This document shows, in pieces, positions 3,029 to 52,597 of a DNA stretch of 64,000 bases. The position numbers were made by a program, and so were the translations under genes. The stretch is from assembly GCA_964462015.1 (NCBI GenBank), contig CAYWXI010000004.1:15859-79858 (forward strand), in the 5' to 3' direction. Within the stretch, counting starts at the first letter, position 1. Each line of letters opens with the position of its first letter. This DNA is from an uncultured Bacteroidales bacterium (GTDB lineage Bacteria > Bacteroidota > Bacteroidia > Bacteroidales > JAEINX01). The notes below the pieces were generated by a model. That model saw only the letters and a program-made list of their open reading frames with translations. It ran no database searches and was not told the origin of the DNA.

Positions 3029-3454
3029 TTGAAACTAATAATAATTAACGGACCAAATTTGAATTTGCTTGGAAAAAGAGAAACTTCGGTTTACGGTTCC
3101 ATCTCGTTTGAAGAATATTTAAGAAAACTGGAAAAACTCTTTCCGGATATTGAAATTGAGTATTTTCAAAGCAATATTGAAGGAGAAATAATTGATGCTT
3201 TACATAAAACGGGCTATTTGTTCGATGGAATTATTTTAAATGCAGGAGCTTATACCCACACATCTATTGCAATTGCCGATGCCGTAAAAGCTATCCCCGC
3301 TCCTGTTGTCGAAGTTCATATTTCAAATGTATTTTCAAGGGAAGATTTCAGGCATACTTCCTATCTTGCACCAAATTGCAAGGGTTCAATTATAGGATTT
3401 GGATTGGATTCATATAGATTGGCTATTGAAAGTTTTCTGATAGACACGAATTAG
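3029..3454 (+). CDS. aroQ: type II 3-dehydroquinate dehydratase
   Basis: 141 aa, TTG start. Has INGPNLNLLGKRE and HISNVFSRE motifs typical of type II dehydroquinase. Confidence 0.95.
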   Translation: MKLIIINGPNLNLLGKRETSVYGSISFEEYLRKLEKLFPDIEIEYFQSNIEGEIIDALHKTGYLFDGIILNAGAYTHTSIAIADAVKAIPAPVVEVHISNVFSREDFRHTSYLAPNCKGSIIGFGLDSYRLAIESFLIDTN

Positions 3455-3642: not shown

Positions 3643-3700
3643 TCATCGAATTACACTAATTGAACGAATTAAAATTCGTATAATTCGTTCAATTCGATGA
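3643..3700. repeat. ACGAATT-word hairpin (8 + 12 bp stem with a 9-nt bulge, 9-nt loop)
   Basis: tcatcgaa[ttacactaa]ttgaacgaatta-aaattcgta-taattcgttcaattcgatga. Base pairing checked by hand. Confidence 0.6.
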
Positions 3701-3752
3701 TAAATATTTCCGCTTGAAATTAGTGGGAAAAATCTTTTCCGGTTTGTTTGGT

Positions 3753-5015
3753 TTATGTTTTTTGTTTTTTCTTTTTTGCTGCCGGAAAAAGAATGTTATT
3801 TAAAATCAATCGATAGCCTGTTGAGTTTGGATGTAAATTCAAATCTGTCGGGGGATCACCGATAAAGTGATGATAATCTTCGGGATCGTGTCCGCCGTAG
3901 AATGTCCAGGTACCCTTACCAAATTCGCCATGAATATACCTCACCTCATTTGAAGCCTTATTTTCGCCCATTATCAAAGCATCGGATTTTAAATTATCAG
4001 CATTAAAAGCCGTTGTTTGTCCCATAAAACCTTTTACGACTGATTCATGATTTTGGCATAACATAGTTGGAACCGGATCCCATTTTGCAGAAAAATCAAA
4101 TAGTGTAAAAAAATCATTGTTTTGCCTTTGATTTTTTGGACGTGTTTGAGTTACATCAATTGAGGAAATCTCGTATTCATAGGGATTAGTGCTGATTGTA
4201 AAATTGGTAAAAGCAATGCATTTATTGAAATCCAATTTTTCCTGAGCATTCGGATCAGCTCCATCACCATCAAACATCACATCACAAATATCAATACCTT
4301 CGGCTGCCAATGCAACATCAAAACTATCTCCTGCCGAACACATTGCAAACAAATATCCTCCACCGGCAACAAACTCTTTTATTTTATTTGCTACGGCCAA
4401 TTTGCATTGCGATACTTTACTATACCCCAATTTATGAGCAATTTCTTCGGAAGCTTTTACATCCTCAATATACCATTGATTATTTTTATATCTTGACCAA
4501 AACTTTCCATATTGTCCTGTGAAATCTTCGTGGTGAAGGTGTAACCAATCGTATAAAGGTAGTACGCCACTAATAATTTCTTCATCATAAATTACATCAT
4601 AAGGAATTTCGGCATAAGTGAGAGCCATTGTAACAGCATCATCCCAGGGTTGTTTATTTTTGGGAGAATATATTGCAATTTTTGGTGCTTTATGCAATTT
4701 TACTTCATCCATATTTATTTCGGGGTAGGAAATCTCCTGCAAAATTGCAGTTGATTGAACATCGGCAATTACCTGATAAGTAACACCCCGAATAATACAT
4801 TCATCTTCAAATATCTGATTATATTTAAACATATAGCTTCCCCCTCTATAGTTTAGTAACCAACTAATTTCAATATCGTGTTGTAACACCCAGTATGCTA
4901 CTCCATAAGCTTTTAGGTGATCTTTTTGAGTGTCGTCCATTGGGATAAGCAAATATGCTCCCTGGCTAAAAAGTATTGAGAATAAAAATATTGAAAGTAA
5001 AAATATTCGTTTCAT
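3753..5015 (-). CDS. secreted conserved protein of unknown function
   Basis: 420-aa ORF with signal peptide MKRIFLLSIFLFSILFSQG. Homologs are, as I recall, often auto-annotated asparagine synthetase B, which I cannot support from motifs. Confidence 0.6.
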   Translation of the reverse strand: MKRIFLLSIFLFSILFSQGAYLLIPMDDTQKDHLKAYGVAYWVLQHDIEISWLLNYRGGSYMFKYNQIFEDECIIRGVTYQVIADVQSTAILQEISYPEINMDEVKLHKAPKIAIYSPKNKQPWDDAVTMALTYAEIPYDVIYDEEIISGVLPLYDWLHLHHEDFTGQYGKFWSRYKNNQWYIEDVKASEEIAHKLGYSKVSQCKLAVANKIKEFVAGGGYLFAMCSAGDSFDVALAAEGIDICDVMFDGDGADPNAQEKLDFNKCIAFTNFTISTNPYEYEISSIDVTQTRPKNQRQNNDFFTLFDFSAKWDPVPTMLCQNHESVVKGFMGQTTAFNADNLKSDALIMGENKASNEVRYIHGEFGKGTWTFYGGHDPEDYHHFIGDPPTDLNLHPNSTGYRLILNNILFPAAKKKKQKT

Positions 5016-25763: not shown

Positions 25764-28700
25764 ATGAAAAACCTTTTCACTTTCTTCGTTTTGCTTATAA
25801 GCATCAATATTCTTTTTGCTGATAATAATCCTTTATGGCTAAGATATCCGTCAATTTCTCCCGATGGTAAAACAATAGTATTTTCATATCAGGGAGATCT
25901 TTTCACTGTTGCTGCCACAGGCGGAGAGGCAAAACATTTAACAATTCATAAGGCTTATGATTTTATGCCGGTTTGGTCGCCCGATGGTAAATACATTGCA
26001 TTTGCATCCGACCGTCATGGTAATTTCGATGTTTTTATCATTCCGGCAAAAGGGGGCAAAGCCAAAAGATTAACTTTTAATTCAACGGGCGAATTCCCTA
26101 ATAGTTTCACACCTGATGCAAGCAAAATAGTTTTTTCGGCGACAATTAAAGATTTGAAAGATAATGTTCAGTTTCCTTCGGGAGTTTTATCGGAATTGTA
26201 CAGCGTGCCTGCCGAAGGAGGAAAAGTCAAACAAATTTTATCGACACCGGCAAAAATGGCTCACTACGATAAAGCACAAAAACGGATAATTTATCATGAT
26301 CGTAAGGGATATGAAAATAAATGGCGAAAACATCATACATCCGCGGTTGCCAGAGATGTATGGATTTACGATACCGAAACCGGTAAACATACAAAGTTGA
26401 CGGAGTTTGCAGGTGAGGACCGTAATCCTGTTTTTAGTCCCGATGAATCTGAAATTTATTATCTGAGCGAGAAAAACACTTCTTTCAATATTTGCAAATT
26501 CCCTGTCGATGATCCTCAAAATATTACGCAAATTACAGTTTACGAAGATCATCCTGTAAGATTTTTAAGTATCTCCGACAATGGAATTCTTTGTTATAGT
26601 TATGATGGTGAGATTTATACTTTAAAATCCGGAGAAATTCCTCAAAAAGTTTCAATAGAAATTTTAAATGATGATAAGGAAAATCAAGAGGAATTTTTAA
26701 CTCTGACATCGGGGGCAACGGAAATGGAACTTTCACCCAATGGAAAAGAAATTGTATTTATTGTGAGAGGCGAAGTTTTTGTTACTTCGGTGGATTTTGC
26801 AACAACTAAAAGGATCACCAACACACCTGAGCAGGAAAGGTCGGTAAGTTTTAGCCCCGACGGCAAATCAATTTTATATGCTTCGGAGCGAAACGGAAGC
26901 TGGAATATTTATCAAACAAAGATTACCCGTGAAAACGAAGATTTGTTTTCTCTTGCTACTATTTTAAAAGAAGAGCCTGTTCTGGAAATTAAAGAGGAAA
27001 CATATCAACCTCGTTTTTCGCCCGATGGAAAGGAAGTTGCATATTTGGAAGAAAGAGAAACACTGAAAGTTATTAATCTTAATTCAAAAAAATCAAGAAC
27101 AATCCTGGATGGAAAATATAATTATTCATATTCCGACGGCGATCAATGGTACGAATGGTCGCCCGACGGAAAATGGTTTATGGTGGAATACTCTCCAAAT
27201 GCGGTGTTTTTAAATGATGTAGCCTTAGTTGATGCAAAAGGAGGAAGCGAGCCCGTGAATTTAACCATGAGCGGTTATAGTGACAATCATCCTCGATGGA
27301 TGATGAAAGGAAATGTAATGATATGGTATTCTGATCGTAATGGAATGCGAAGCCACGGAAGCTGGGGTTCGCAGGACGATGTTTGGGCAATGTTTTTAAA
27401 TCAGAAGGCTTATGATAATTTTAAAATGACCAAAGAAGAATATAAATTAATAAAAGAAAAAAAAGAAAAAGAAAAAAAGAAAAAAAATAAAGGTGAGGAA
27501 AATGATGAGGAAGAGGAAATAATTGAAGATATAAATATTGATCTAAAAAATATTGAAGACCGTAAAGAAAGACTTACGATAAATTCATCTTCACTCGCTG
27601 ATGCAATTCTCAGTCCTGACGGTGAAAAATTATATTATCTAAGCAAATTTGAAGACGGTTACGATTTATGGGTTAATAAACTTAAAGATAAAGAAACCAA
27701 ATTACTTGTTAAATTGAAGGGAGGAGCGGGAGCTTTGCAAATGGATAAAAAGGGAGAAAATTTGTATTTGTTTTCCAATAAGCAAATAATTAAAATTAAG
27801 GTTGATGGCAAACCCGAAAAAAAAGCTGTAAGCTACAAAGCTGAGTTTAATCTCGATAAAAGACTTGAACGTGAATATATGTTTGAACATGCATGGCGAC
27901 AAGTGCAAAAAAAATTCTATAATCCCGATCTTCATAATGTTGACTGGGATTATTTCAAGAAAGAGTATAAAAAGTTTTTACCTTACATAAATAATAATTA
28001 CGACTTTGCTGAAATGTTAAGCGAAATGCTTGGCGAATTAAATGCCTCGCATACCGGTTCGGGCTATCGGTCTTCTTCAAAAAACGGGGACAGGACTGCA
28101 AAACTCGGAGCATTCTTCGATGAAACTTATGAAGGTACAGGTATTAAAATTATTGAAATTATTGATAAGAGCCCTCTGTTGCAGGCTGATTCAAAAATAA
28201 AATTTGGAGATATTATTGAAAAAATTGATGGAGTGACGATCTCACCTGATATGAATTATTATCAATTACTTAATCATAAAGCAGGAAAAAACACATTATT
28301 GTCGATTTATGATCCACGATCAAAGAAACGCTGGGAAGAAATAATAAAACCCATTTCGGCAGGAGCAGAAAGTCAATTATTATACAAGCGATGGGTGAAA
28401 AATCGCCGGGAAGAAACCGATAGATTATCCAATGGAAGAATAGGCTATGTGCATGTAAGAAGCATGAACAGTTCAAGCTTCCGTGAATTTTACTCAGAAG
28501 TTTTAGGCAGAAGCTGGGATAAGGAAGCTTTGATAGTCGATACTCGCTTTAATGGCGGAGGCTGGTTGCACGATGACCTGGCAACTATGCTTGCCGGTAA
28601 AAAGTATGCCGATTTTTACCCAAGAGGAGTTCATTACGGTCACGAACCAATGAATAAATGGATCAAGCCTTCAATCGTACTTATCAGCGAAAGTAATTAT

Positions 28701-28991
28701 TCCGATGCTCATGGTTTCCCGTATGCTTACAAAACTCTTGAGATCGGTGAACTTGTGGGAATGCCGGTCCCCGGAACTATGACAGCGGTTTGGTGGGAAA
28801 CTCTTCAGGACAGGTCTTTATATTTTGGTATTCCCCAGGTTGGTGCTAAAGACATGCAGGGAAATTATCTTGAAAACAAACAACTCGAACCAGATCATAA
28901 AATCAGGCAGGATTATGATATTGTGATACAGGGACGCGACCAGCAATTAGAGAAAGCGATTGAAGTATTGTTGGAAGGTTTGGATGAATAA
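25764..28991 (+). CDS. tricorn-like protease (TolB-like beta-propellers + PDZ + S41 peptidase)
   Basis: Start moved to ATG 25764 (MKNLFTFFVLLISINILFA signal peptide). Repeated SPDGK propeller motifs, a PDZ-like region, and a C-terminal S41 core (VDTRFNGGG...ISESNYSDAH). Confidence 0.9.
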   Translation: MKNLFTFFVLLISINILFADNNPLWLRYPSISPDGKTIVFSYQGDLFTVAATGGEAKHLTIHKAYDFMPVWSPDGKYIAFASDRHGNFDVFIIPAKGGKAKRLTFNSTGEFPNSFTPDASKIVFSATIKDLKDNVQFPSGVLSELYSVPAEGGKVKQILSTPAKMAHYDKAQKRIIYHDRKGYENKWRKHHTSAVARDVWIYDTETGKHTKLTEFAGEDRNPVFSPDESEIYYLSEKNTSFNICKFPVDDPQNITQITVYEDHPVRFLSISDNGILCYSYDGEIYTLKSGEIPQKVSIEILNDDKENQEEFLTLTSGATEMELSPNGKEIVFIVRGEVFVTSVDFATTKRITNTPEQERSVSFSPDGKSILYASERNGSWNIYQTKITRENEDLFSLATILKEEPVLEIKEETYQPRFSPDGKEVAYLEERETLKVINLNSKKSRTILDGKYNYSYSDGDQWYEWSPDGKWFMVEYSPNAVFLNDVALVDAKGGSEPVNLTMSGYSDNHPRWMMKGNVMIWYSDRNGMRSHGSWGSQDDVWAMFLNQKAYDNFKMTKEEYKLIKEKKEKEKKKKNKGEENDEEEEIIEDINIDLKNIEDRKERLTINSSSLADAILSPDGEKLYYLSKFEDGYDLWVNKLKDKETKLLVKLKGGAGALQMDKKGENLYLFSNKQIIKIKVDGKPEKKAVSYKAEFNLDKRLEREYMFEHAWRQVQKKFYNPDLHNVDWDYFKKEYKKFLPYINNNYDFAEMLSEMLGELNASHTGSGYRSSSKNGDRTAKLGAFFDETYEGTGIKIIEIIDKSPLLQADSKIKFGDIIEKIDGVTISPDMNYYQLLNHKAGKNTLLSIYDPRSKKRWEEIIKPISAGAESQLLYKRWVKNRREETDRLSNGRIGYVHVRSMNSSSFREFYSEVLGRSWDKEALIVDTRFNGGGWLHDDLATMLAGKKYADFYPRGVHYGHEPMNKWIKPSIVLISESNYSDAHGFPYAYKTLEIGELVGMPVPGTMTAVWWETLQDRSLYFGIPQVGAKDMQGNYLENKQLEPDHKIRQDYDIVIQGRDQQLEKAIEVLLEGLDE

Positions 28992-29149
28992 GTGCTTGCC
29001 AGAAAACGCCAATTTCTTTCCCGAAAAGTCGGGACAGGCTGTTATGCTCGTGCAGAAAATCAGCCATCTACAATAGTAAACTCTTGATTTTCTGCATTTC
29101 GCATTCCGATAGCTATCGGAACAAACTTGACGTTTTCTGTCTAAGCACT
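28991..29149. other. 159-nt multibranch palindromic element (outer 7+9 bp stem enclosing three hairpins), MITE-like or structured 3' element
   Basis: Outer arms agtgcttgccagaaaacg and cgttttctgtctaagcact. Inner hairpins at 29019-29034 (tcccga-aaag-tcggga), 29051-29096 (12-bp stem) and 29104-29121 (ttccgatagctatcggaa). It starts at the last base of the tricorn stop codon. Confidence 0.65.
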
Positions 29150-29218
29150 CCAAAATATTGAGTTTTCACTTTTGGTTATCATGCTGCTTTTTTCCCAATT
29201 TTCATTGTCGAATCCTTT

Positions 29219-29417
29219 CAGGATTCTGTAATGTGATTTTTTACTTTTTGACCACAGGTTTCACCTGTGGCTATTCACGTTTAACCACTTCGTGGTTTGC
29301 TAATGCATGAGATTTTTTAAACAATCCTGAAAGGATTGAATATGAATAGCCCTGTACGAAGTGCAGGGAAAACAAAACAGTATTTAAAAAAGAACCCTGA
29401 AAGGGTTCAACAAATTG
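29219..29417. repeat. hairpin-cassette cluster (six short hairpins, two hairpin-linker-hairpin modules)
   Basis: 29219-29235, 29261-29279 + ctattcacgttt + 29292-29306, 29332-29346 + gaatatgaatag + 29359-29377, and 29401-29417. Loops are TTTCA/TTC in the first half and TGAAA/GAA in the second. Confidence 0.8.
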
Positions 29418-29541
29418 AGACTAAATATTTTTCCTTCCGTTTTTTATTACATGCTCATTGAAATTTTAATTGTTGAAATAATTTGATCATTAAGATTCCT
29501 GAGACCATTTTGAGTTTAATTTCCATCTCTCCATCTCTCCA

Positions 29542-31296
29542 TCATTCCAATTCTTTCATTATCTTCAATTTCAATTCATCCAATTGTTCTTCGGAAATTG
29601 ATGAAGGCGAGTCAATCATCACATCTCTTCCCGAATTGTTTTTCGGGAAAGCAATAAATTCACGGATTGAATCCTGTCCGCCAAATAATGCAACCAAACG
29701 ATCGAAACCAAGAGCAATACCACCATGAGGGGGTGCCCCGAATTCAAAAGCATTCATTAAAAAACCAAATTGATCCTGGGCTTCTTCGTCGGTGAAACCA
29801 AGATGTTTAAACATTAGTTTTTGAAGATCACGATCATGAATACGAATCGAACCTCCACCAATTTCAACACCATTAATAACCATATCATAAGCATTTGCAC
29901 GAACATTTCCGGGAGCGGTTTCCAGCAATTCTATATCCTCTGCTTTTGGTGACGTGAAAGGATGGTGCATTGCGTGATAACGTTTAGTGTCTTCATCCCA
30001 TTCGAGTAACGGAAAATCTACAACCCAAAGAGGGCAATAGCTCAACGGATCGCGAAGTTCAAGGCGATTGCCCATTTCGAGACGTAATTCACAAAGGGCT
30101 TTTCGAGTGTGATCAGTCTCACCTGCAAGAACGAGTAAAAGGTCACCGGGTTTTGCACTAAATTTCTCAGCCCAGAGTTTCAATGCTTCCTGATCAAAAA
30201 ACTTATCTACAGATGATTTAAAACTTCCGTCTTCATTACATTTTACATATACCAAACCATTTGCACCAATCTGGGGCTTTTTAACAAAATTAGTTAATTT
30301 ATCTATTTGTTTTCTTGAGTATGTTCCGCAATTTTTCGCACAAATACCAACAATCAATTCAGCATCATCGAAAACTTTAAAATTCTTTCCTTTAGCAACA
30401 TCGTTTAATTCTGCAAATTTCATCCCGAAACGAATATCAGGTTTATCCGAGCCATAATATTTCATTGCTTCAGAATAAGACATCACCGGAAATTTTTCAA
30501 CTTCAATTCCTTTGACTTCTCTAAAAAGATATTTTGCAAGTCCTTCGAAAGTTTCCAAAACATCATTCTGATCAACAAATGACATTTCGCAGTCGATTTG
30601 AGTGAATTCCGGTTGGCGGTCAGCTCTCAGGTCCTCATCACGAAAACATTTTACAATCTGATAATAACGATCATAGCCGGCGATCATTAATAATTGCTTA
30701 AATGTTTGAGGTGATTGAGGTAAAGCATAAAATTCTCCTTCATTCATACGAGAAGGTACAACAAAATCTCTGGCACCTTCAGGTGTTGATTTAATTAAAT
30801 AAGGAGTTTCGATTTCAAAAAATCCTATTGAATCAAGGTATTTTCTCGTTTCAATCGACATGCGATGCCTGAGTTCCATGTTTTTTTTCAAGGGATTTCG
30901 ACGTAAGTCTAGATAACGATATTTCATCCTTAGTTCTTCACCGCCATCGGTATTATCCTCAATAGTAAAAGGAGGTAGTTTTGATTTATTTAAAACTTCG
31001 AGTTTTTCAACAATTATCTCAATTTCTCCTGTAGGGATTTTCAGGTTTTTATTGCTACGTTCTTCAATTTCACCACTTACACAAATAACAAATTCTCGTC
31101 CGAGTTTCCGGGCTTCTTCGCATAAAGCTGAATTTTTTTCCATATTAAAAACCAATTGGGTAATTCCATATCGGTCGCGAAGATCAATAAAAGTCATTCC
31201 ACCCAAATCTCTCGATTTCTGTATCCATCCGCATAAAGTTGTTTTCTGTCCTACATTTTTTTTACTTAATTCTCCGCAATTATGTGATCGTAACAT
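29542..31296 (-). CDS. aspS: aspartate--tRNA ligase
   Basis: 584 aa. OB-fold N-terminus and class II motifs ([34 protein letters not shown]). Confidence 0.97.
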
Positions 31297-51345: not shown

Positions 51346-51507
51346 ATCTTCTGCTGCAGATAGGGCTTCTCGATGTCAAGAAAAACTATCTGTTGCTGCG
51401 TATAGGGCTTCTCAATGTCAAGAAAGGCTATCTGTTGCTGCGAAGCTTCTCAATGTCAAGAAAGTTGATCTGCTGTTGCAGATAGGATACCTCGGAGTCA
51501 GGAAATT
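51346..51507 (+). repeat. 4-unit tandem array, 42-nt period (one 38-nt unit)
   Basis: Units start at 51346, 51388, 51430 and 51468. Consensus atctgttgctgcgtatagggcttctcaatgtcaagaaaggct. Shares period, orientation and the core GCTGC..ATAG..CTTCTC with the 53.7-kb array. Confidence 0.8.
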
Positions 51508-51661
51508 AAAGCTTATAGTCAAAAAAGGTTCTATCAGAATTAGTAAGCTAATCAACTAAGTAATATAATCAGAATAATTTCAATAATTCAAGAAAATATA
51601 TGATAACGAAAGAAGAATATGGAGGAGTAGAGTGCTTTTATCATTCCTCAAAATGTGCCTG

Positions 51662-52075
51662 CTAATTTGTTAGTATTGCTGTTGCTTCAATTTCTATAAG
51701 ACACCCAAAATGTAATTCCCTTGTCGGAATAATGCTTCTTACTGGTTTATGGTCTTCGAAAAAAGAACTGTATCTTTCGTTTACTTTATCCCAAAGAGCA
51801 ATATTTGATATATAAACACGCATCTGAAGCACCTGGTTTTTTGAACTACCTGCCTCATTCAAAATTAATTCAACATTTTTTAATGCCTGATCGGCCTGCT
51901 CTTCAATAGTTTTTGGAATAGATTTAGTAATCGGGTCAATTGGAAGTTGCCCTGATAAGTACAAAATTCCATTATGATGAATGCATTGTGAATAATGGCC
52001 ATTACTCTTTGGCATTTTTGAGGTTTCTATAATTTCCATTTTATTAATATTTTTCGATAACTCATTTTTAATCAA
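51662..52075 (-). CDS. ridA: RidA/YjgF-family reactive-intermediate deaminase
   Basis: 137-aa ORF (likely true start ATG 52039, MEIIETSKMPKSNGHYSQ). YLSGQLP...RVYI...R..IPTRELHFGCLIEIEA is typical of the family. Confidence 0.85.
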   Translation of the reverse strand: MIKNELSKNINKMEIIETSKMPKSNGHYSQCIHHNGILYLSGQLPIDPITKSIPKTIEEQADQALKNVELILNEAGSSKNQVLQMRVYISNIALWDKVNERYSSFFEDHKPVRSIIPTRELHFGCLIEIEATAILTN

Positions 52076-52349
52076 AATATATGTTTTTCTTTGTGAAACT
52101 TTGAGTTTTCTTCGTGATTCTTTGCCGCAATAACTATTTCAAAGAAGTATCAAAGAAAATACATCGTTACACAAAAGTATGATAAAAAACGATTTATTAT
52201 AATATTCTGAACATAAAAATATTTCGTTATTTTATATAAATAATGAACACAGAAAAAGGAACATCGAATAATGAATTTTTATCAGCATTCATCATTCCTT
52301 GTTCAATATTCGATATTTTTTAAAAACAAATTCAAACCTTGAAATTTCA

Positions 52350-52597
52350 AACCACAAAGTGGTTAAACGTGAATAGCCTCAGGTTTACCCCGTGGAATAA
52401 TAGCTTTGCTATTCAACGGGGTGAACCTGTGGATATAAAGCAGAAAGACACATCAATAACCCCAAAGGGGGTTTAATAAATCAATATAAGTACTCGCTTG
52501 TTGTTAACATTAAACCCTTTCAGGGTTTTTTGCTGATTATATTTTATTACCCTGCACTTCGTACAGGGCTATTCATATTTAATCCGCTTTGCGGATT
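52350..52597. repeat. hairpin-cassette cluster, inverted copies of the 29.2-kb modules
   Basis: aaccacaaagtggtt + aaacgtgaatag + a nested 56-nt hairpin (52377-52432). Then 52458-52473, 52512-52528, and ccctgcacttcgtacaggg + ctattcatattt + aatccgctttgcggatt (52550-52597). Confidence 0.8.

Follow-up and report, generated by a model that had tools for sequence, protein, structure and literature searches.

A cloverleaf-forming element at the stop codon of a tricorn-like peptidase gene is very probably a decayed copy of a miniature transposable element family of Bacteroidales

In a 64,000-nt stretch of contig CAYWXI010000004.1 from an uncultured Bacteroidales bacterium (hereafter the window), a gene for a tricorn-like S41 peptidase (25764-28991, + strand, 1075 aa according to the list of open reading frames (ORFs) and the translation) converges on the aspartyl-tRNA synthetase gene aspS (29542-31296, - strand, identified from the ORF list and the Pfam families tRNA_anti-codon, tRNA-synt_2 and GAD). 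A protein identical to the window peptidase carries the Pfam domains Tricorn_N, Tricorn_2nd, PD40, Tricorn_C1 and Peptidase_S41. The 550-nt spacer between the two genes houses a cloverleaf-like palindromic element of 159 nt (28991-29149). An earlier reading of the letters alone (the sequence-only reading) had proposed that this element begins at the tricorn stop codon, and that it is either an insertion resembling a transposable element of the miniature, inverted-repeat type (MITE) or a structured RNA at the 3' end of the tricorn transcript. Its placement proved exact, as the TAA stop of the peptidase gene occupies 28989-28991 and the final A, at 28991, is also the first base of the element. 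Our results make it very likely that the 159-nt cloverleaf is the folded core of a decayed copy of a MITE family of Bacteroidales.

The stems and the palindrome listed in the sequence-only reading were all found at their coordinates, with one small correction: in the predicted fold, the outer arms (28991-29008 and 29131-29149) pair over 8 + 9 bp, with a small bulge between, where 7 + 9 bp had been counted. On the + strand they enclose hairpin 1 (tcccga AAAG tcggga, 29019-29034), a central hairpin with a 14-pair stem and a small apical hairpin (29049-29098), and hairpin 3, an 18-nt palindrome ttccgatagctatcggaa (29104-29121). A perfect 12-bp stem (29051-29062 / 29085-29096) lies within the central hairpin. 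Folding of 28991-29149 is well beyond chance. The minimum free energy of the 159-mer was -59.7 kcal/mol on the + strand (200 shuffles averaged -31.6, z -6.75, with 0 as good) and -68.6 kcal/mol on the - strand (z -8.27 against shuffles). The outer arms resemble each other over ~32 nt, as do hairpins 1 and 3, so that the whole element amounts to one long imperfect palindrome. The only ORFs overlapping it are antisense and mechanical, of 54 and 68 aa. Rfam returned 0 matches in the whole window at gathering thresholds, and a search of 28800-29700 found nothing overlapping 28991-29167 even at E up to 10. Signals for a sigma-70-type promoter or a terminator inside the element did not rise above shuffles, and on the + strand no stem is followed by a U-tract and no terminator-like call was made.

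Both outer arms share the motif AGTGCTT-(2-3 nt)-CAGAAAACG-Y-CAA, which allowed a search for relatives. The pattern AGTGCTTN{2,3}CAGAAAACGYCAA, applied to a genome collection with one genome per species, gave 81 loci in ~25 metagenome-assembled genomes (MAGs), where a rough estimate would predict 2-4 by chance. The hosts were uncultured Bacteroidales, Bacteroidota and Lentimicrobiaceae, together with two matches labelled Chlorobiota. Many loci held two arm matches on opposite strands, ~100-160 nt apart. An exact 20-nt seed alone occurred at 17 loci in MAG JAUXFX and at 18 in JAOZKO, and both genomes thus contain the multiple dispersed copies that characterize a MITE. Identity among copies was 91-93% within a genome and ~80% between these two richest genomes. 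A profile built from aligned copies recovered 85 copies or fragments in the fetched loci; one locus (L083) gave no profile hit and was discarded as a chance coding match. The sequence-only reading had suggested looking for further copies, and these were indeed found in ~25 MAGs, though profile search and self-BLAST alike detected a single one within the window. Fuzzy matches to the arm at 3194, 16817 and 56010 were rejected for want of profile support. A scan of viral contigs with the motif minus its last four bases gave 23 single, unpaired matches with no similarity past the seed, which we attribute to chance. BLAST of the 159-mer against a phage collection and of the family consensus against a plasmid collection gave 0 matches. 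Of the two Chlorobiota-labelled matches, L092 has the look of a genuine short copy and L084 that of a partial one; either the host range is wider or Bacteroidota contigs were misbinned.

Forty non-identical full copies, 148-174 nt long (mostly 152-153), align from AGTGC to ..GAC and share one order of parts: the left repeat AGTGCTTGCCAGAAAAC, a core rich in hairpins, the left repeat again as an internal inverted copy, a 12-nt spacer and the right repeat. The right terminal repeat has the consensus GTTTTCGTGCAAAGAC(T); it follows the spacer CCAAAATATTGA, and after it the left flank is repeated. The first 17 nt return, inverted and diverged, as the last 17 nt, with ~13/17 positions matching by eye between the left AGTGCTTGCCAGAAAAC and the reverse-complemented right end AGTCTTTGCACGAAAAC. 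Each element accordingly carries its end motif in triplicate, namely at the left end, in the internal inverted copy that closes the cloverleaf, and at the right end. TANNT flanks stand on both sides with an invariant A after each, which defines the target as the palindrome TANNTA. The 5-nt flanks were identical in 31 of 46 copies and one base off in 6 more. For NN itself, identity was observed in 35/46 copies, compared with a mean of 6.5 and a maximum of 15 when flanks were re-paired (5000 trials). Because only NN is provably duplicated, staggers of 2, 4 and 6 nt are equally compatible with the data. A filled site (L046, TAAAT-element-TAAAT) and an empty one (L048, a single TAAAG) were found in a repeated segment of the same MAG. 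Duplication of TA only, in the manner of IS630/Tc1-like elements, was considered because of a resemblance to the Tc1 end and rejected, as L048 is 4 nt too short for it. Of the checks proposed in the sequence-only reading, target duplications and one empty site are therefore present at the level of the family.

Variants of the family span 48-312 nt, with lengths that are not multiples of three and no conserved ORF. Internal-deletion derivatives of 48-93 nt recur and retain both ends. The 48-nt forms (L034, L043, L060, L074 and L087, with L096 at 41 nt) join two CGTGCA motifs; forms of 86-93 nt occur at L046, L051, L067 and L063, and those of 311-312 nt (L052 and L093) contain extra internal hairpins. 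A mini form (L074) and a full one (L106) occupy the same site in two MAGs, which implies that at least some deletions arose in place. Taken together, these family features are the defining features of a MITE. The MITE-like interpretation of the sequence-only reading thus holds for the existence of family copies, inverted repeats and duplications; its right arm is internal, and the true end lies ~28 nt further on.

The window copy matches the family over 28991-29167 on the + strand (profile positions 1-143 of ~153; nhmmer E 1.1e-36), running 18 nt beyond the end that had first been proposed. It opens with the left terminal inverted repeat (IRL) AGTGCTTGCCAGAAAACG (28991-29008, + strand), which provides the outer stem's 5' side and is nearly invariant across 41 aligned copies. 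Hairpin 1 is a module found in only part of the family: it is missing from the modal ~125-nt core, and its stems are changed in L064, L109, L069, L033 and L108. Hairpin 3 (alignment columns 134-151) is present in 8 other copies, and in the subfamily of the window copy it stands in for the AGCCT of the basic form. These two hairpins explain why the window copy measures 159 nt up to the internal repeat and the modal form ~125 nt. The 3' half of the outer stem, cgttttctgtctaagcact (29131-29149, - strand), is the internal inverted IRL copy and not a terminus, since ~28 conserved nt separate it from the flank duplication in the 40 full copies. What remains after it is a tail (29150-29167, + strand), in which the spacer CCAAAATATTGA is followed by GTTTTC, the opening 6 nt of the right terminal repeat. 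In the consensus, GTTTTC runs on into GTGCAAAGAC, which the window copy has lost: it aligns with L076, L038 and L057 through GAGTTTTC and then diverges. It therefore has no right flank duplication, its right terminal repeat is short of the final ~10 nt, and its left flank reads GAATA, not TANNT. L076 is the closest copy (93% identity over 155 aligned nt). Lacking an intact right terminal repeat, the window copy is probably immobile.

A sequence further along the spacer resembles the missing end. GAGAC+TAAATA at 29417-29427 (+ strand) is the sole GA[GC]ACTANNTA in the 64-kb window on either strand, and 29417-29431 (GAGACTAAATA) is its sole match to "right terminus + TANNTA", in the proper strand and 250 nt past the tail. 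This site may be the displaced right terminus with its duplication, which would put a cluster of hairpin cassettes (29168-29416) inside the element. Such a reading needs a 3-nt loss at the left junction, as GAATA does not match TAAAT. The bases at 29417-29427 also partner 29152-29163 in a 12-nt inverted repeat, and the two clues are weak and in conflict.

We also assessed whether the element is tied to the tricorn locus, using three orthologous loci fetched via peptidase homologues. L004 encodes a peptidase 93% identical to that of the window, with the same aspS neighbour, across an unrelated 157-nt spacer that lacks the element. In L005 (peptidase 89% identical) a different neighbour lies 41 nt away, and in L006 (80% identical) the spacer is 78 nt long; neither has the element. 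An identical copy was present on contigs from two sequencing runs encoding an identical peptidase. Its absence from all three orthologous loci marks the element as a lineage-specific addition, and the window copy is most likely a fixed, immobile relic gained after the split from the closest sampled relative. The proposal of a structured RNA at the 3' end of tricorn was not borne out as a locus-specific conserved feature, the spacer DNA of the closest orthologous loci being both unrelated and shorter. It is possible that the inserted element is co-transcribed with the peptidase gene and folds in its 3' untranslated region (3' UTR). The L004 spacer (3680-3836) itself resembles, by eye, a long imperfect palindrome (aaagggtataaggaaatagggaaaataaaggg... 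/ ...cctttataccattatacctttatttccc), and the peptidase-aspS spacer seems to gather different palindromic DNA in different lineages.

Conservation of the structure was assessed by mapping the window fold onto the 41-sequence alignment. The proportion of cells that were paired was 88.8%, compared with 83.1% after shuffling and 31-42% with slid partners. Nineteen pairs showed double changes, and 0 of 500 shuffles reached the observed values. The central hairpin is the covarying part of the family, with double compensatory changes at 8 of its 12 stem pairs and at all 3 apical ones, giving several versions of the stem. The outer stem never covaries. This indicates conservation at the sequence level, as would be expected for transposase-binding repeats. 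Covariation in homologues, another check put forward in the sequence-only reading, was hence seen in the central hairpin and was absent from the outer stem. Copies within a subfamily share descent, which inflates these counts, and template switching between the arms of a palindrome could mimic compensation. The complementary strand was the more stable in all 41 copies (consensus -64.7 vs -43.4 kcal/mol), an energy gap that rests on only 5 vs 3 G-U pairs in the consensus folds, so that no strand can be assigned from it.

The family also shows an orientation bias with respect to genes. The left end lies within 12 nt of a stop codon (ORFs of 100 aa or more) in 30 of 68 copies, and the right end in 5 of 51 (Fisher p 4e-5 vs the left end). 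In 15 copies, the stop codon consists of the flank T and the AG of the element. Since TAG is regenerated in both orientations and the target is palindromic, neither coding constraint nor the target explains the bias. The copy in the window is oriented in the favoured way. These observations suggest that orientation matters for the upstream transcript, and the bias is the single feature of the family beyond what is routine for a MITE.

Under the MITE interpretation, a cut-and-join transposase supplied in trans would have inserted the element, with duplication of the target TANNTA upon insertion. Many copies, including that of the window, would abut gene ends because TANNTA often contains or abuts a TAA or TAG stop. 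The window copy would later have lost its right terminus and canonical flank duplication. Within the peptidase 3' UTR it would form a very stable, multi-branched RNA, which could slow 3' exonucleases or hinder read-through into the convergent aspS. Several points weigh against this interpretation. The 81 loci contain no repeated transposase-like ORF. A metagenome scan with the left end plus bases that exclude the MITE returned chance coding matches and a few diverged MITEs, and the plasmid and phage collections yielded no autonomous partner. In the window copy, a TANNT duplication and a right terminus are both absent, and we infer its transposition from the family; it is the one copy in 64 kb, and the species-representative scan covered genomes other than the source genome. 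Finally, the covarying hairpin and the orientation bias exceed purely selfish needs and are mechanistically unexplained. Long-range pairing of ends likewise detected no long element bounded by both ends within the loci. The absence of an autonomous partner is itself weak evidence, because MAG binning commonly drops insertion sequence copies. Such a partner would be expected to measure 1-2 kb, to begin with (T)AGTGCTTGCC... and to end with ...GCAAAGAC(TA), between duplicated TANNT(A) flanks. In a literature search, the terminal-repeat strings appeared in no paper, and the sole paper containing TANNTA was unrelated.

Two other origins for the cloverleaf appear very improbable. A conserved cis-regulatory RNA, or an independent small RNA, specific to the tricorn/aspS locus would agree with the exceptional folding energy on both strands and with a position exactly at the stop codon. 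It is the least credible of the readings that we weighed, as the orthologous loci L004, L005 and L006 do without the element, Rfam has no match even at E up to 10, and the same sequence stands beside unrelated genes in ~25 other genomes. Hardly more probable is a REP/BIME-type element or an IS200/IS605-derived one (PATE), which a Y1 (RAYT/TnpA) transposase would move in single-stranded form as DNA. The hairpin-rich, palindromic architecture is what such an origin would predict, and small REP-like hairpins accompany the element, both as YCCCGA..TCGGGR and in a cluster of hairpin cassettes at 29206-29410. Elements mobilized by Y1 transposases are not known to duplicate their target on insertion or to have terminal inverted repeats, whereas this family has a duplicated TANNT(A), a filled/empty site pair and inverted termini. 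No GTAG/CGTC head tetranucleotide was noticed in the alignment by eye, and there was no RAYT gene in the loci examined. REP/BIME sequences (PMC3733652) are short, clustered, intergenic palindromes, and in this respect the nested YCCCGA..TCGGGR hairpins and the neighbouring cassettes have a REP-like appearance; the 153-nt family is unlike REP/BIME in having terminal inverted repeats and target duplications.

A reading that deserves more weight, though we still consider it unlikely, takes the family for a functional RNA module (a stabilizer of the 3' UTR, a processing site or a terminator-like structure) spread by transposition and kept by selection. The window copy would then have been retained to serve the peptidase transcript or to insulate the convergent genes. 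Maintenance of the central hairpin through compensatory changes in several stem versions argues for this, as does the bias at stop codons (30/68 vs 5/51) that the palindromic target leaves unexplained. The window copy itself sits at a stop codon in the favoured orientation and has been kept despite the loss of its transposition end. Yet no U-tract follows any stem on the + strand and no terminator-like call was made there, the complementary strand folds better in 41/41 copies, opposite to what the favoured orientation would predict, and the closest relatives manage without the element at the tricorn locus. Shared descent and template switching also temper the covariation. A fuller version, which we find rather doubtful, is that the family is a transposon-borne 3'-UTR module whose folded RNA is under selection, with YCCCGA..TCGGGR perhaps an independent, ultra-small mobile palindrome nesting in it. 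It draws on the covarying hairpin, the approximately five-fold bias for a left end on a stop codon and the 15 copies with a T+AG stop. If true, transposition would spread ready-made mRNA 3'-end structures across Bacteroidales genomes.

Interpreted as a MITE family, these elements are of a kind that is well known. Correia elements of Neisseria, ERIC/IRU of enterobacteria and RUP of pneumococcus are bacterial MITEs that fold into long RNA hairpins. The features shared with them are a length of 100-200 nt, the lack of coding capacity, terminal inverted repeats and a body that is an imperfect palindrome. TA-containing targets, intergenic positions and deletion/insertion variants are also shared, as co-transcription with neighbouring genes may be. 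There is no detectable sequence similarity to those elements (no Rfam, plasmid or phage match). The present family further differs in its three copies of the end motif, in its target TANNTA with NN duplicated, and in the bias of its left end toward stop codons.

Within the same phylum, the Porphyromonas gingivalis MITEs BrickBuilt, MITEPgRS/MITE464 and MITE239 have IS5-family partners (PMC4596501). BrickBuilt contains a 23-nt minisatellite, and target duplications of P. gingivalis MITEs are variable or absent (PMC4596501). These MITEs and the present family belong to the same class of element but differ in sequence, length and architecture, and duplications are regular here. An IS5-family repeat, GAGACCTTTGCAAAA, has been listed for Porphyromonas and Neisseria (PMC4596501, Table 2); by eye it is alike at ~12/15 positions to AGTCTTTGCACGAAAAC, the reverse complement of the right end. 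We regard this resemblance between short motifs as a lead only toward an IS5 link. No description of the family turned up: it matched nothing in Rfam or in the plasmid and phage collections, and its terminal repeat occurs in none of the searched papers.

For annotation, the cloverleaf should be labelled a truncated MITE copy and not a new regulatory RNA of the tricorn gene. With the family profile, dozens of comparable structures could be masked in MAGs of Bacteroidales, whose assemblies these repeats also break. The family also points to a transposase, and it offers a clean data set on whether MITE hairpins are under selection as RNA in Bacteroidota, whose 3'-end formation is poorly studied: it combines the palindromic TANNTA target, the biased insertion beside stop codons, a covarying hairpin and the modular gain and loss of hairpins.

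The cassette cluster at 29206-29410, downstream of the window copy, consists of ~36-nt units, each a hairpin plus a CTATTCAYRTTTAA linker. The units recur at 52348-52585 with 95-97% identity, on the opposite strand, in a different order and again in intergenic DNA. Within the cluster, at ~29270-29283, short-read contigs from this organism stop or begin, as a repeat spread through the genome would lead one to expect. The sole canonical terminator-like site in the spacer, GAACCCTTTCAGGGTTC followed by TTTTTTAAAT, lies on the - strand at 29392-29408. It is outside the element, on the aspS strand and 134 nt downstream of the aspS stop, a placement from which a cassette hairpin probably terminates aspS.

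Hairpins of the form YCCCGA-(4-8 nt)-TCGGGR occupy at least four different positions across MITE copies (following CTTC, in place of AGCCT, within the central stem on its 3' strand, and in the apical loop) and are also found alone outside MITEs. Sites were noted in the window at 29019-29034 and 29104-29121, and elsewhere in L071 (4084 and 4225), L072 (688), L086 (7350), L098 (21), L068 (709) and L079 (4013). Such hairpins may represent a palindromic repeat in its own right, ultra-small and nested in the MITE. Hairpin 1 could instead be ancestral, given that the most diverged copies have it with altered stems.

Elsewhere in the window, a 1.5-kb gene-poor stretch contains a 42-nt tandem repeat at 51352-51463 (2.8 copies, 88% matches, consensus TGCTGCGATAGGGCTTCTCAATGTCAAGAAAAACTATCTGT). 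The same stretch holds a small minus-strand ORF at ~51620-52040, whose translation looks RidA/YjgF-like by eye alone.

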